DNA from: a virus | Lineage: Duplodnaviria > Heunggongvirae > Uroviricota > Caudoviricetes | Virus record (IMG/VR): IMGVR_UViG_2711768010_000004 | Coordinates: 1-4,386 of that record | Length of the DNA stretch: 4,386 bases | Strand: one strand, 5' to 3' | Part shown: in pieces, positions 1-4,386 of the stretch | How the letters are laid out: every line of letters starts with the position of its first letter | How positions within the stretch are numbered: the stretch's first letter is position 1 | Position numbers and translations under genes: made by a program | Notes under the pieces: model-generated | Databases searched by the model: none | The model's input: the letters and a program-made list of their open reading frames with translations, nothing else | What the model was told of the DNA's origin: nothing

Positions 1-60
1 CTCTCGTCTGGGGAATATCTCCCCGGCAGCCTTCAGGGAAAAATATCATCAGATGGCTGC

Positions 61-414
61 TTAAAAAAAGAACAAATGGTAGTGTCCGCTATTGCCAGTA
101 CACCTCAATTGCTCTGCGGCTTCGCTCAGAGCTGGCGTATGTTCCCGGCCTACTGATTCACACAGGTAATCAACGAAACCGGACACCAGTTTTCGTTCGC
201 GAGGCGTGATCGCCCCACCGACCGGAGTCCAGTAATCGAAACCCAGTTGCAGGAGTTTGAAAAAACGCTTGTGGAATGCGTAGTTACACACACGCTTAAA
301 GTCTGCGTGTATCCACTCACCTATTTTGATTTGATGCAGAAAATCGCAACTCTCCGGCGTCGCCGGGAGAAGTAATCCGGAAGAGGTTTGTTTGACCAGT
401 TGTATATGTGCCAT
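61..414 (-). CDS. Hypothetical prophage protein, 117 aa (MAHIQLVKQTSSG...HYHLFFF)
   Basis: Track ORF 61..456 begins at a TTG (454-456) that overlaps the upstream stop. An in-frame ATG at 412-414 is preceded by GGAGA with a 6-nt spacer, so I place the start there. No family recognised. Confidence 0.45.
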   Translation of the reverse strand: MAHIQLVKQTSSGLLLPATPESCDFLHQIKIGEWIHADFKRVCNYAFHKRFFKLLQLGFDYWTPVGGAITPRERKLVSGFVDYLCESVGREHTPALSEAAEQLRCTGNSGHYHLFFF

Positions 415-452
415 CGGCTTTCTCCGGTGGCACGGTGTTACACAGCAGGAGT

Positions 453-740
453 TCAATCCTGCTCAAGATTGTAGATGAGTTTATTCTTCAGCAAAAGCAG
501 AAAACCAGCCTTAAAACCAATCTCTTTCAAAACCCGTAATGATGTGACAAATTCGTCCTCACGCAAAATAAAACCGTCCGTCAGAAGTCCATTACAAAAA
601 TAAAATAACACAGCACCGCTCTTCCTTTGTTGAGATTGCAAACATCTAATGCGGCAATGGCTGACAATCGCTCCATTCTCAACGCGCACAGCATAGAGGC
701 CATTTTCACTAAAAATTTCACGCAATTCTTCGATTTTCAT
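453..740 (-). CDS. Hypothetical prophage protein, 95 aa (MKIEELREIFSENGLYAVRVENG...)
   Basis: ATG start at 738-740 and TGA stop at 453-455. Weak GGA-type RBS about 8 nt upstream. Sits downstream of a predicted promoter and the hok terminator. No family recognised. Confidence 0.45.
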   Translation of the reverse strand: MKIEELREIFSENGLYAVRVENGAIVSHCRIRCLQSQQRKSGAVLFYFCNGLLTDGFILREDEFVTSLRVLKEIGFKAGFLLLLKNKLIYNLEQD

Positions 741-821
741 CTTCAGAATCCTTCCAGATAAATAGCTCTCCCCTGTTCGGGGTCCATCCCTCTTCTCCCT
801 GCGCGCTACTTAAGTGAGTCG

Positions 822-849
822 ATTCTATCTGCGAAGGTGCGCGAATCAA
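822..849 (-). promoter_or_regulatory. Candidate sigma70 promoter for the two small downstream ORFs
   Basis: Minus strand reads TTGATT (plus 844-849), a 16-nt spacer, then TAGAAT (plus 822-827). It lies just 3' of the hok terminator and about 80 nt upstream of the ATG at 740. Sequence match only. Confidence 0.3.
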
Positions 850-857
850 ATTCACCG

Positions 858-914
858 GAAATAAACAACAAAAAACCCGCCGAAACGCTGAGAGATCACA
901 GCGATGGGCGGGTT
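858..914 (-). terminator. Rho-independent terminator ending the hok transcript
   Basis: Outer stem 874-881 pairs with 907-914 (AACCCGCC/GGCGGGTT). Inner stem 886-890 pairs with 899-903 (CGCTG/CAGCG). On the minus strand this is followed by TTTTGTTGTTTATTT. Confidence 0.45.
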
Positions 915-953
915 AAGTGCGGGTGCGTTGAGGATGCCTGACACATCAGAGGT

Positions 954-981
954 GGGCGGGGATGGGATCAGCTCCCCGCCC
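954..981 (-). promoter_or_regulatory. Stable stem-loop in the hok 3' UTR (possible fold-back/stability element)
   Basis: Perfect 9-bp inverted repeat GGGCGGGGA (954-962) and TCCCCGCCC (973-981) with a 10-nt loop, starting 9 nt after the hok stop. No U-run follows, so it is not itself a terminator. Hok-family mRNAs are known to carry structured 3' ends. Confidence 0.4.
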
Positions 982-989
982 GGTCACTC

Positions 990-1145
990 TTACTTCCTGG
1001 ATTCGTAGTCTACGAAGACAGCGACCTCCGTCTGGCCGGTTCGGATTCGTACCTCACAGAGGTCTTTCCTCGTTACCAGTGCCGTCACTATGACGGTTAA
1101 ACAGATGACGATCAGGGCGATTAACATCGCCTTTTGCTGCTTCAT
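990..1145 (-). CDS. hok: Hok/Gef-family small membrane toxin, 51 aa (MKQQKAMLIALIVICLTVIVTALVTRKDLCEVRIRTGQTEVAVFVDYESRK)
   Basis: ATG at 1143-1145 preceded by AAGGAG, TAA stop at 990-992. The translation is nearly identical over most of its length to chromosomal HokD/Gef as I recall them, with a hydrophobic transmembrane core and the conserved RKDLCEV motif. In the track it is fused to the upstream gene only because of read-through across the N run. Confidence 0.9.
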   Translation of the reverse strand: MKQQKAMLIALIVICLTVIVTALVTRKDLCEVRIRTGQTEVAVFVDYESRK

Positions 1146-1167
1146 AGCCTGCTTCTCCTTGCCTTTC

Positions 1168-1208
1168 NNNNNNNNNNNNNNNNNNNNNNNNNNNNNNNNN
1201 NNNNNNNN
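1168..1208. other. Assembly gap (41 N)
   Basis: Run of n characters. It hides the stop of the QueH-like gene and the hok leader region where mok and sok would lie. Confidence 0.99.
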
Positions 1209-1853
1209 GATAAGAGGGCGTCCCTGAGATTTGCGGTGTAGATTGGTATCGCGCAGAGAATACACACAGCCACAATATTCCTGCTGATAGAATTTTTCGC
1301 GCTTGCTGATTTCAATCATACGGGACGAGCCGCCCTGCTTGCGCCAGTTATAATCCCAGTACACCATGCCCGGATAATGCGCGACGGCTCGCCGCCCACA
1401 GTCGTTAACCTGCTGCATATTTTTCCAGCGTGAAATGCCCAGTGAACTGCTGATCACACTGAAACCATTTTCAGCGGCGTACAGCGCTGTCCGCTCAAAA
1501 CGCATGTCAAAACACATGGTGCAACGGATCCCTCGTTCGGGCTCCCATTCCATTCCTTTGGCTCGTTCAAACCAGTTGTCTGTGTCGTAATCAGCATCAA
1601 TAAACGGCACGCCGTGTTGTTCAGCAAAGCGAATATTCTCATCCTTACGAATTAAATACTCTTTCTGAGGATGAATGTTCGGGTTGTAGAAAAAGATGGT
1701 GTAGTCGATTCCCGAGGCCTGAAGCGCCTCCATCACCTCACCGGAACATGGAGCACAGCAAGAGTGCAGTAGTAGTTTGTTTGCCCCGTTTGGGAGCTCC
1801 AATTTGGGCCGTTTGAAATCAGCAACTGTCATAAATATGTTTATTGGGGTCAT
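1209..1853 (-). CDS. queH: QueH-like epoxyqueuosine reductase homolog (DUF208), 3' end incomplete in gap
   Basis: The translation carries the DUF208/QueH signature cysteines: HSCCAPC, RCTMC and YCGCVYS. At least 215 codons are visible, consistent with the usual QueH length. ATG at 1851-1853 (alternative ATG at 1830-1832); neither has a strong Shine-Dalgarno. Confidence 0.8.
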
Positions 1854-2000
1854 AAAAATATCAAAGAGTGTAGCATTAGAACGGGGCTATCGGAAACAGA
1901 TGTGTGACTGCTCCCCGCCCTTTCGGGTGGTCTCCTGATGATTTGAGGGTGCAGAAATCCCTCCGGTTAAGGATTAAATTTTTAACAGTGCTAAATTTAA

Positions 2001-2357
2001 TTATTCAGTTCTGGATTTTGTCGCCCTGCGTATCCGCGCTTTCGCGTTACGCTCAATCTGTATCAGCTTTTCTATATTTCTCCGCCTTTCCTGTTCCTCC
2101 TGGCGCAATAGCCTTACATCATCTGCCAGTCTGGTTTCTCTTTTTGCCACAGAGAGCATCCAGTCAAACGGCTCCACAACCGCACCGCAGATTTTACAGC
2201 GGACCTGACGCTCTTTTTCGTCAACCCGTACAGAGGCGTGATGGCAATATGGTCTTTCCGATGGCTCATAAAGAAAATTAACCTGATTACGAGGGTCATC
2301 CTCTTTTACCGGAAATAAAACGATATTGCTTAACTCATCTTCTGGTTTTATTTCCAT
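2001..2357 (-). CDS. Hypothetical Zn-ribbon protein with basic coiled-coil C-terminus, 118 aa
   Basis: ATG at 2355-2357 preceded by AAGGAGAGG, TAA stop at 2001-2003. Carries a C-H-H...C-x-x-C cluster (PYCHHASVRVDEKERQVRCKICG) and a K/R/E-rich tail. An alternative ATG at 2412-2414 abuts the upstream stop as TGAATG and would add 19 residues. Confidence 0.55.
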   Translation of the reverse strand: MEIKPEDELSNIVLFPVKEDDPRNQVNFLYEPSERPYCHHASVRVDEKERQVRCKICGAVVEPFDWMLSVAKRETRLADDVRLLRQEEQERRRNIEKLIQIERNAKARIRRATKSRTE

Positions 2358-2414
2358 GCTCCTCTCCTTTGATGCGAATGCCAGCGGTAATTGAAGCCTG
2401 ATAGCTAATTTCAT

Positions 2415-2837
2415 TCACAGTATCGCCTCCTGAAAATTACCCTGATAGAAAGCCAGTACACGCTGCATAGCTTCGCTCTTCCGGCACTCGCGACAGATTA
2501 TATTCAGGCGCCTGTCGTAGCGGCGTATTTCTCCGTCAGGTAATGACCAGATAAGGTCCGGATCAACAACAACCGGTTTCCTCACCTTTACTCTCGAGAG
2601 TTTTTTGCGGGCGCTTTGCCAGTCCTTGCGAGCCTGTTCAGACGGGAATAAGCCGTAGCCAGAATTATATACATCACCACTTGCGACCAGTTCTATGCAT
2701 AAGCGACCGACAGACGCACGACTGATACCTGTTTCATCTGACAACTGCCGAATCGTGACCCGACCGTCCTGATGCACGAGTTCCACAATTCGCGTCTTCA
2801 GTTCTTCCCGCTGTTCGGGAGTAAAAGGTTTCGCCAT
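2415..2837 (-). CDS. Winged-helix (HTH) DNA-binding protein, 140 aa, unknown function
   Basis: ATG at 2835-2837 is preceded by AGGAGG in the 14-nt gap after the DnaC-like stop. The N-terminal segment VTIRQLSDETGISRASVGRLCIELVASGDV looks like a winged-HTH. Stop at 2415-2417. Confidence 0.65.
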   Translation of the reverse strand: MAKPFTPEQREELKTRIVELVHQDGRVTIRQLSDETGISRASVGRLCIELVASGDVYNSGYGLFPSEQARKDWQSARKKLSRVKVRKPVVVDPDLIWSLPDGEIRRYDRRLNIICRECRKSEAMQRVLAFYQGNFQEAIL

Positions 2838-2851
2838 AAATCCTCCTGAAA

Positions 2852-3598
2852 CTACTTAACAACCCTCGAATGGCTAACATTCGGACGCCAGCTCTCCCAG
2901 TTAAAATTCACCCAGCGCCCGCCGTTCATGACCATGCGATCCATCACCCGCTCGCCGAGCAATGTTTTCATCACCTCATAGTTCAGGTTTGTCAGCATCC
3001 CCACGCTGCGCATCGACGCTGTCCGGCGATCAACAATCTGGTGCAGCACCACCTGCTCGTTTTTCGTCTCGCGCTGAATGCCAATTTCATCAAGAACCAG
3101 CAGATCCACTTCGCACAGCTCCCGCAAAAATTTTTCGCCTGACTGCCCGTCGTCATAGCTGGCGTGCAGGGCGCTCATAACATCAGCCACGGTAACCACA
3201 ATCACTGTCTGACCGTCTTTCAGCAGGCGATTCCCGATAGCTGCCGCTAAGTGATTCTTCCCGGTACCAGGTTTTCCGCTGAACGCAAAATTTGTACACC
3301 CGGTCATCAGTTCATCGGCGATGGATTTCGCCTGGCTTAACGCGTATCGCTGGCCGTCGTTCTGCACCTGGTAATTCGCAAACGAGCATTTACGGTGCAA
3401 CGGCTGGATGCCTGAGCGATTCAGAATTTTTTCCACCCGCAACTGGCGATTCAGGCGGTTGATCTCCTCGCTACGTTTCTGGCCTTCAGCAAGTTGCCAC
3501 TCGCGCCACTCCGCTACCGTTCTGAATGGGGCGGTTACATGTGGCGGGGTCAGTCGGCGGATGCGTTCCAGAACGCCGCCTGTCGCAATATTTTTCAT
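2852..3598 (-). CDS. DnaC-like AAA+ helicase loader / replication protein (YdaV-like), 248 aa
   Basis: Walker A (SGKPGTGKNHLA) and Walker B (LLVLDEIG) motifs are visible. I recall the sequence as very close to the Rac prophage YdaV replication protein. ATG at 3596-3598 lies 6 nt after the upstream gene's stop. Confidence 0.9.
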   Translation of the reverse strand: MKNIATGGVLERIRRLTPPHVTAPFRTVAEWREWQLAEGQKRSEEINRLNRQLRVEKILNRSGIQPLHRKCSFANYQVQNDGQRYALSQAKSIADELMTGCTNFAFSGKPGTGKNHLAAAIGNRLLKDGQTVIVVTVADVMSALHASYDDGQSGEKFLRELCEVDLLVLDEIGIQRETKNEQVVLHQIVDRRTASMRSVGMLTNLNYEVMKTLLGERVMDRMVMNGGRWVNFNWESWRPNVSHSRVVK

Positions 3599-3953
3599 GG
3601 TCCGTTACCCCCTGAAGCCTGGCGGGATCGCACTGTCCGGCAACGAGACGGTGTTAACCTGTCGGAGCAACGTCTCAGGCCGAACACCTTTCGGCGCGAA
3701 CAGGCCCTGGTATTCATTGGCGATGCTGTGTCGAATCACCTGCTCAGGTGTAAAACCCTGCTGACGGAATTTTTCCAGTTCCCGTATCGCCCCGTTAGCG
3801 CCCTGCTCCGTTCGAATCGGTTTTCGCAATGCCTGTCTGAACCGGACCCACTCATGCCAGAGTGTTTCCGGCAACCAATCGGGCAGCTCAATAGCCTCCG
3901 GCTCGAATTTTTTAGACGCTCGTTTTTGGCGAGGGGGAGATCAGTATTTAGAT

Positions 3954-3971
3954 CTTCCTCTTCCTCTTCCT
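3954..3971 (-). repeat. (CTTCCT)3 hexamer repeat encoding a six-glutamate acidic tract
   Basis: Three tandem CTTCCT units on the plus strand, read on the minus strand as GAG GAA x3 in the middle frame of the initiator gene. Confidence 0.8.
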
Positions 3972-3973
3972 CT

Positions 3974-4016
3974 GGTAACGCTTTTTGATCCGTTTGTGTA
4001 ACGCTGGCAGCGTTAC
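3974..4016. repeat. Iteron-like GTAACGCT 9-mers: one direct copy plus a 19-bp palindrome
   Basis: GGTAACGCT at 3974-3982. GTAACGCTG at 3998-4006 is mirrored by CAGCGTTAC at 4008-4016, giving the palindrome GTAACGCTG-G-CAGCGTTAC. Confidence 0.7.
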
Positions 4017-4281
4017 CTTTTCGTTTCAGTTCGCGTATTTTTGTTACTCGCTCGTTTGTAACCGCCCGTTTTTTTTAGAGCTTTTTCCGTTATGACGTTC
4101 AAAGTTAGGTAGAGAAAGCCCTCCGTCATTTTCGACCAGCCATCCAACCTGAATTAACGCATCAGCAAAACCAGACATAAAAGTGATGCGATCTATTGCA
4201 CTTTTTGTAACGCCGCGAGCGTTACAATCTGCATTACCGTCTATCATTTGTTGATCCGCCCATGCCCAGAAGCGAATAACC

Positions 4282-4386
4282 TGAGGTAGCCTGAGTTTAA
4301 CGGACACTCCTTCCTGAAATAGAATGGCATCAGAAGGAGCTAATAATGAGCAGAAAAACCCAACGTTACTCTAAAGAGTTCAAAGC
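4282..4386 (+). mobile_element. IS3-family insertion sequence, left end (IS600-like), partial
   Basis: A terminal TG at 4282 opens TGAGGTAGCCTGAGTTTAACGGACAC, an IS3-type inverted repeat. About 60 nt inside is an AGGAG RBS and an ORF opening MSRKTQRYSKEFK, which I recall as the IS600 OrfA N-terminus. The rest of the element is outside the window. Confidence 0.55.
4346..4386 (+). CDS. IS3-family transposase OrfA, N-terminal 13 codons only
   Basis: ATG at 4346 with AGGAG 7 nt upstream. The RYSKEFK motif is typical of the IS3-family OrfA HTH region. Truncated by the window edge. Confidence 0.5.
   Translation, partial: MSRKTQRYSKEFK

Follow-up and report, generated by a model that had tools for sequence, protein, structure and literature searches.

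Lambdoid phages and prophages of Escherichia coli carry queH, a gene for a putative cobalamin-independent epoxyqueuosine reductase

Introduction

The queuosine (Q) pathway ends with the reduction of epoxyqueuosine (oQ34) to Q in tRNA-Asp, -Asn, -His and -Tyr. In work by Zallot et al. in 2017, DUF208 genes are said to complement a queG mutant of Escherichia coli and restore Q, and Acinetobacter baylyi reportedly loses Q only when both genes are deleted. In E. coli the final step is cobalamin-dependent and proceeds via QueG (PMC4646009), one of the four cobamide enzymes of this species (PMC11841063), to which QueH is an iron-dependent alternative (PMC9508795); Staphylococcus aureus has both QueG and QueH, which are redundant and have different cofactors and different expression patterns (PMC13443448). 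As for viruses, a 2019 survey of phage deazaguanine systems stated that QueA, QueG and QueH were encoded by none of those analysed (PMC6884629). Here we describe a queH gene on a stretch of 4,386 nucleotides of Caudoviricetes DNA (IMG/VR record IMGVR_UViG_2711768010_000004, positions 1 to 4,386; hereafter the window), which an earlier note, made from the sequence alone, had read as a prophage-borne QueH-like gene immediately upstream of a hok toxin gene.

The comparisons presented below suggest that the gene probably encodes a captured, self-expressed and B12-independent epoxyqueuosine reductase, its activity, its expression in lysogens and a benefit under B12 limitation being inferred. The gene call itself is routine, family, reaction and annotation being already known; what appears to have escaped notice so far is that temperate phages of E. 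coli widely carry an enzyme specific to queuosine. Literature searches (QueH with prophage, phage or Acinetobacter; DUF208) did not return a paper on a phage-borne QueH.

Results

Identity of the prophage QueH

The queH coding sequence lies on the minus strand at 1209-1832, encoding residues 1-208 of 221, and its DNA is 100% identical to the gene of RefSeq WP_012421537.1 ('epoxyqueuosine reductase QueH') in E. coli FDAARGOS_944, whose intact prophage (locus L001, 99.5% identity to the window) served as reference relative. The product matches Pfam PF02677 (QueH/DUF208, COG1636) with 220.9 bits against a cutoff of 23.5 (E 1.6e-65) over model positions 1-174 of 175, so that the profile search against the DUF208/QueH model, which the earlier note had proposed, proved significant. 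When compared with solved structures, the sequence matched only Thermotoga maritima QueH and its mutants (7lc5, E 4.5e-22). No NCBIfam model matched QueH, hence the QueH name given by the Prokaryotic Genome Annotation Pipeline must stem from another rule, and the missing match was not counted against family membership.

In an alignment of the prophage protein with T. maritima QueH and 150 family representatives (clusters at 50% identity), Cys25, 26, 104, 107, 187 and 189 (numbering of the 221-amino acid protein) coincided with six T. maritima cysteines; these six columns held Cys in 95-140 of the 150 representatives, the remaining rows being mostly gapped there, and the motif set CC-x-P-[C/D], C-x-x-C and C-x-C was complete in the prophage protein. 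Going by the per-residue roles reportedly assigned by Li et al. in 2021, the conserved cysteines are presumably the ligands of a [4Fe-4S] cluster and of an adjacent iron. The titles of PDB entries show that C9S and D13N mutants of T. maritima QueH have been studied (9dco is D13N). Position 29 of the prophage protein, equivalent to T. maritima D13, is Cys, as in 114 representatives against 5 with Asp; CCAPC is the typical family motif and the crystallised CCAPD form a minority. The exchange of Asp13 for Cys was also considered as a mark of an inactive or divergent enzyme and rejected, Cys being the majority state in the family.

The AlphaFold2 (AF2) model of the protein (predicted local distance difference test, pLDDT, 73; predicted TM-score 0.75) found its best Foldseek matches in the PDB in 7lc7, 7lc5, 9d86, 9deu and 9dco (E 3e-11, probability 1.0, TM-score 0.65 on the query and 0.75-0.81 on the target), followed by TtuA/LarE-type PP-loop proteins (sulfurtransferases) at E ~1e-5. 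Family match, ligand cysteines and fold all agree with the previous call of a QueH-like (DUF208) gene with intact motifs: the prophage gene is a bona fide member of the QueH family and a genuine queH orthologue.

The start codon of queH is almost certainly ATG 1832 and not ATG 1853, from which the gene had previously been read, because RefSeq uses 1832, the Erwinia orthologue begins at the aligned Met, and ATG 1853 is ATT in one natural allele. The 3' end falls into a run of 41 N (1168-1208), an unsized gap or mask, both flanks of which are identical to L001, where they are separated by 247 nt (L001 11754-12000). As read in L001, these 247 nt comprise the last 13 queH codons with the stop, the hok promoter, the sok RNA and the mok start. 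The full-length prophage protein thus has 221 residues and ends in KIGQLHYGKEEKE; the true C-terminus, for which closing of the gap had been recommended, is in this way available by way of L001, and the real distance from queH to hok is 227 nt. The leaders of hok/sok are multi-copy in E. coli (matches in 4731/5426 genomes, with a median of 2 sites in each), and this repetition may be the reason why the assembly broke or was masked at the N run.

Carriage in E. coli genomes, phages and viral collections

DNA of queH was detected in 995 of 5426 complete E. coli genomes (~18%), with 985 copies near full length, and the annotation read 'epoxyqueuosine reductase QueH' in every E. coli genome match listed. 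RefSeq names the exact protein QueH on at least 1000 contigs, so the gene call is less new than the earlier note implied, and the 90% cluster of the protein also has entries from Shigella, Enterobacter and Klebsiella. With the K-12 sequence as query, queG was found at ≥95% identity in 5426/5426 genomes, from which it follows that every queH carrier holds both reductases. The statement that E. coli hosts use QueG is correct in this respect, QueH representing a second enzyme with a different cofactor.

The assignment to phages was equally borne out. Besides the prophages of the 995 genomes, 188 viral contigs in IMG/VR encode a close QueH relative, and one isolated phage of the GenBank phage collection, Escherichia phage HannyBb, carries queH at 97.7% identity between a Ren-like gene and hok (L009 5980-6666), where it is annotated as 'hypothetical protein' and starts at the upstream ATG. 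In PHROGs v4 the QueH family corresponds to phrog_3217, labelled 'unknown function'. Phage and bacterial resources differ on queH, which is an annotation gap, and carriage of the gene by phages conflicts with the 2019 survey, in which QueA, QueG and QueH were absent from all viruses analysed (PMC6884629).

Intact relatives of the prophage carry phage tRNA genes for Ile, Arg, Thr and Gly downstream of the Q region (L001 9060-9370; L003 1943-2195). Queuosine tRNAs (Asp, Asn, His, Tyr) are not among them, so that QueH does not serve phage-encoded tRNAs. The search of the phage collection also returned QueH homologues, at 31-51% identity, on 18 unannotated 'Bacteriophage sp.' contigs from human faeces, in a few Staphylococcus and Listeria 'phage' records, and, at 79%, in two records of 330-380 kb named 'Acinetobacter phage MD-2021a'. 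Some of these matches may be real phage cargo in other hosts, while others look like bacterial DNA filed as phage.

Origin of the gene and its upstream region

The closest relatives outside E. coli, at 79-87% identity, are the QueH proteins of Erwinia, Photorhabdus, Providencia, Proteus, Gibbsiella, Pantoea and others. In Erwinia sp. (86% identity) the gene lies between purL and glrK-glrR-glnB, and in Providencia (84%) beside tmcA and purC, both being core, non-phage, housekeeping contexts. Synonymous sites are saturated between prophage queH and the chromosomal orthologues and the proteins are ~85% identical, indicating that the capture is old and the protein strongly constrained.

On the minus strand, 34 nt upstream of the queH ATG, the window contains TGCTACACT (1867-1875), an extended -10-like motif (TGn followed by a -10 hexamer matching at 4 of 6 positions) and candidate queH promoter. 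It was present 34-35 nt upstream of queH in all of 80 viral loci, the 80 best as picked by protein similarity, and in 7/7 aligned alleles, including a divergent allele from Mali whose upstream homology fades right there. The same TGCTACACT occurs ~31 nt upstream of chromosomal queH in Erwinia, followed by a similar ATAAACnTATTT and then the ATG. This suggests that the native promoter travelled with the gene into the phage, since a non-coding motif is shared although synonymous sites are saturated. The sole minus-strand promoter called near queH by a consensus scan lies directly after the queH stop and fits the hok promoter. A preQ1 or cobalamin riboswitch in the spacer was also considered and rejected, an Rfam scan at E 0.01 having returned only sok.

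With the start at 1832 the spacer upstream of queH measures 168 bp. Across it lies a gene for a hypothetical protein of 118-137 amino acids (phrog_1621), then a DUF977 (Ren-like) gene and only then the DnaC-like ydaV, so the former description of a 147-bp spacer separating queH from replication genes is wrong in both length and neighbour. About 70 nt of the spacer (1833-1903, minus strand), comprising the 5' untranslated region and the candidate promoter, travel with queH in nearly all carriers, as judged from the ends of genome homology and the seven-allele alignment; the ATG at 1851-1853 falls within this block. In most carrier genomes homology to the window stops at query position 695, that is window 1903, in prophages without queH it resumes at 1915 or ~1960, and the exact upstream join of the window is common to 2 genomes only. 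The gene is thus present or absent between conserved phage flanks, with the junction at 1904-1914. The recombination junction between the queH cassette and the upstream phage backbone, as delimited here (1904-1935), overlaps a GC-rich hairpin, CCCCGCCCTTTCGGGTGG, the arms and loop of which (1910-1935; CCCCGCCC-TTTC-GGGTGG) pair better on the plus strand. This hairpin could be a recombination hotspot or the remnant of a terminator.

Selection on queH

In a comparison of seven alleles from prophages and phages of E. coli, the ratio of non-synonymous to synonymous substitution rates (dN/dS) ranged from 0.025 to 0.094 between pairs, at dS up to 0.45. The open reading frame of 221 amino acids was intact in 80/80 viral loci, whose 18 DNA alleles encode 5 proteins only. 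These values indicate strong purifying selection on queH.

The variable slot downstream of queH

In the window queH is followed by hok (990-1145, minus strand), the hokD-type toxin of a type I toxin-antitoxin module (Pfam HOK_GEF, E 4.6e-23; RefSeq hokD in L001). The antisense RNA sok (Rfam RF01794, 117 bits against a cutoff of 59) was seen, together with the leader and the mok start, only in L001, the window having N there. The survey of related prophages that had been suggested earlier confirmed a frequent co-occurrence: queH and hok are contiguous in 741 E. coli genomes, and hok follows 227-241 nt past the queH stop in 64 of 78 informative viral loci, one of them at 399 nt. On the other side, DUF977 precedes queH in 75 of the 79 viral loci that were informative.

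The partner downstream can be another one. In 13 viral loci queH is followed by a cytosine (Dcm-type) methyltransferase and an NgoMIV-type endonuclease, and one viral locus has an insertion sequence (IS) between queH and hok; strain TOE51 carries Kiwa in this place (L004 3196-4835; KwaA E 1.3e-101, KwaB E 2.8e-159), the O157:H7 strain Z1831 a restriction-modification system and the strain from Mali a DUF1971 gene. Restriction-modification versions of the slot were seen at L012 1764-3774 and in L044 and 12 similar loci. Where Kiwa or restriction-modification genes are inserted, the hok leader is retained over its first ~150 nt, as though recombination within the leader had exchanged hok for the new genes. 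In PEC399 an unrelated open reading frame of 108 amino acids sits in the place of queH itself, and many other prophages share both flanks with another small open reading frame or nothing between them.

queH is hence cargo at the edge of a variable addiction/defence slot, with the replication module and DUF977 on one side and the nin/Q region on the other. queH and hok often occur as a pair, but their association is one of position and not of function: a functional queH-hok operon was considered and rejected, hok having its own promoter and sok right past the queH stop and being swapped elsewhere for restriction-modification or Kiwa. The link between the two genes that the earlier note implied is accordingly limited to position.

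No gene for a DpdA/TGT-like protein or for preQ0 synthesis (FolE, QueC, QueD, QueE) was found among the 43 annotated features in 27 kb of L001, nor in 12.7 kb of HannyBb, as far as annotation lists go and with no whole-phage profile search. PADLOC at E 0.01 gave no match for QueH, the same search finding KwaA and KwaB in the neighbouring slot of TOE51.

A decayed prophage as carrier

All recognisable genes of the window are on the minus strand, in the transcription order ydaU-like, ydaV, DUF977/Ren-like, small hypothetical, spacer, queH, hok, 95-amino acid hypothetical and truncated DUF1367; the window is the early-right arm of a Rac/Qin-type lambdoid prophage of E. coli/Shigella type. The ydaU-like replication initiator gene (3605-4282) is a pseudogene here, in which, relative to L001, 10 bp are missing at 3931 and 2 bp are inserted at 4069-4070, each change shifting the frame, and the 5' end is cut off by IS600. 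It is followed by ydaV (2852-3598), encoding a DnaC-like helicase loader (NCBIfam PRK12377, E 8e-154; DnaC, E 1.7e-91), by the gene for a DUF977/Ren-like exclusion protein (2415-2837; Pfam DUF977, E 1.1e-33; phrog_142) and by the small hypothetical gene that abuts the queH spacer (2001-2357; RefSeq WP_001343130.1; phrog_1621, E 5e-56), described as zinc-ribbon-like on a weak Pfam match to Zn_Ribbon_TF that lies under the cutoff. Beyond hok lie the 95-amino acid hypothetical (453-740) and the DUF1367 gene (108-414), cut by IS600.

Two IS600 copies (IS3 family) in the same orientation bracket the 4.2-kb prophage fragment and truncate the DUF1367 and ydaU-like genes. The terminal part of one copy occupies 1-107 on the plus strand (megablast match to 'IS3-like element IS600 family transposase'; homology to L001 begins at window 108), and the left end and orfA start (MSRKTQRYSKEFK) of the second one occupy 4283-4386, again on the plus strand (megablast IS600 match; homology to L001 stops at window 4282). 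The window resembles a short draft contig ending in repeats, typical of Shigella or IS-rich E. coli. Because of the IS600 at both ends and the ydaU-like gene broken relative to L001, the prophage of the window is a decayed, defective remnant; its earlier description as prophage-borne DNA was right as to origin, and only a remnant of the prophage is present here. queH, hok, DUF977 and ydaV are still intact in this remnant although the ydaU-like gene is broken, and the region 1209-1853 shows 100% DNA identity to L001.

Discussion

A lambdoid phage would have taken queH from an Enterobacterales chromosome (Erwinia-like) together with ~70 nt of its native upstream region, extended -10 promoter included, and the gene would now circulate as moron-type cargo beside hok/sok, restriction-modification or Kiwa. 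Its product would be a cobalamin-independent Fe-S oQ reductase, converting oQ34 to Q in tRNA-Asp, -Asn, -His and -Tyr, and a lysogen would express it from the gene's own promoter, with Q being finished when cobamide is scarce or its uptake lost. Since the QueG of the host needs B12, which E. coli cannot synthesise de novo, a lysogen expressing QueH could complete queuosine under cobamide shortage. The auxiliary tRNA-modification role assigned to the gene by the earlier note stands as regards family, motifs and phage carriage, and is plausible, as a prediction, as regards the role itself.

Several observations weigh against this interpretation. At its threshold the consensus scan detected neither a sigma-70 promoter ahead of queH nor a terminator in the interval from queH to hok, and ATG 1832 lacks an obvious Shine-Dalgarno sequence. 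The T. maritima reference enzyme carries Asp where the prophage protein has Cys, and confidence in the AF2 model is moderate (pLDDT 73), falling below 50 in the Cys-bearing loops, as is perhaps not surprising when a metal site is modelled in the absence of its cluster. The dN/dS sample of seven alleles is small, and the selection of the 80 viral loci by protein similarity biases the counts of intact frames and of few protein variants. Literature searches returned neither published activity or expression data for prophage QueH nor a phenotype separating oQ from Q, so that a selective benefit is conjecture, and we know of no decoding difference between oQ and Q. These points considered, we still regard a captured and self-expressed reductase as probable. 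A bolder statement, that phage queH is the first queuosine-specific tRNA-modification enzyme spread by lysogeny, equipped with a captured promoter and uncoupling the final Q step from the cobamide supply in ~18% of E. coli, is tentative, and we would sooner doubt than assert it.

An unlikely alternative is that queH serves the phage in the lytic phase, being expressed only after induction by read-through from pR, silent in the lysogen, and completing Q in host tRNAs for the NAU/NAC codons of phage late genes. The orientation of queH in the early-right operon, between the replication genes and the Q antiterminator, would suit such a role, as would the lack of a called promoter or terminator around the gene and its presence in a viable isolated phage. 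However, in the remnant bounded by IS600, where the initiator is broken, queH has remained intact and 100% identical, and a purely lytic function would not be selected there, though the decay may be recent; moreover, the extended -10 motif is conserved among the alleles and recurs ahead of the chromosomal gene of Erwinia, and tRNA pools turn over slowly relative to the lytic cycle. A purely lytic-phase role, while possible, hence fits less well than expression in the lysogen, given the promoter motif and the survival of the gene in a dead prophage.

We consider it quite improbable that queH is neutral cargo, retained through linkage to a hok/sok addiction module or to a restriction-modification system that stabilises the region. 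The gene indeed adjoins hok in most of the informative viral loci and in hundreds of genomes, is otherwise found next to restriction-modification or Kiwa, and survives in a decayed prophage, but linkage cannot explain selection at the amino-acid level, and the low dN/dS contradicts neutral retention alongside hok. The near full length of 985 of the 995 copies and the conservation of all ligand cysteines also speak against it, as does the fact that queH stays put while its downstream partner changes. A function in anti-restriction through 7-deazaguanine modification of phage DNA, the '7-deazaguanine-related' option of the earlier note, or in another phage-host conflict is hardly credible and not supported by anything found here, since, although phages use preQ0-derived bases in DNA (PMC6884629) and Kiwa, NgoMIV-type restriction-modification and hok/sok are cargo of the same slot, the intact relative has no annotated DpdA or preQ0 genes in its 27 kb, QueH has no PADLOC match, known DNA deazaguanine pathways lack an epoxide intermediate and a survey of phage DNA found no dQ (PMC6884629), and the 86% identity shared with housekeeping orthologues speaks for an unchanged substrate.

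Roughly a fifth of E. coli genomes thus encode two oQ reductases that are not homologous and depend on different cofactors. Should the prophage copy be active in lysogens, the Q status under B12 limitation would differ among strains according to their prophage content. A captured reductase expressed by the lysogen would pay off in B12-poor niches, or when BtuB, the B12 receptor that is also used by phages and colicins, is lost or repressed. For a redundant oQ reductase to be under strong purifying selection would then imply that the step from oQ to Q matters for fitness, and selection on this seemingly redundant enzyme offers a handle on whether the reduction matters physiologically.

Comparison with Known Systems

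Lambdoid morons (examples are bor, lom and the addiction or defence genes that occupy the queH slot) resemble queH in being single genes whose presence varies between conserved flanks; queH for its part has a candidate promoter. They carry surface, virulence or defence factors, whereas queH encodes a housekeeping tRNA-modification enzyme, with no terminator detected and a promoter that is a candidate only. The phage 7-deazaguanine clusters (DpdA with FolE/QueD/QueE/QueC, phage 9g type) are likewise phage-encoded and draw on the same queuosine/7-deazaguanine enzyme repertoire, but stop at preQ0, preQ1 or G+ derivatives and act on DNA, while the locus described here has QueH alone and no transglycosylase.

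Among QueH proteins, the T. maritima type (PDB 7LC5/7LC7) is like the prophage protein in its full-length Pfam match, six cysteines and fold, and differs in that the crystallised enzyme has CCAPD where the prophage one has the majority CCAPC. Chromosomal queH sits in a core locus, whereas the prophage gene rides on a lambdoid phage or prophage. QueG is not homologous to QueH and needs cobalamin (PMC4646009), and is core (5426/5426) while QueH is accessory (995/5426). The same reaction on the same four tRNAs is nevertheless expected of QueG (yjeS, B12 and Fe-S), which co-occurs with queH in every carrier.

Two oQ reductases in one cell are reportedly likewise found in A. baylyi ADP1, where both genes are chromosomal. 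S. aureus also combines two oQ reductases with different cofactors per cell, both again chromosomal (PMC13443448). In the E. coli carriers of queH, unlike in these two species, the second reductase arrives by lysogeny and is therefore variable among strains.

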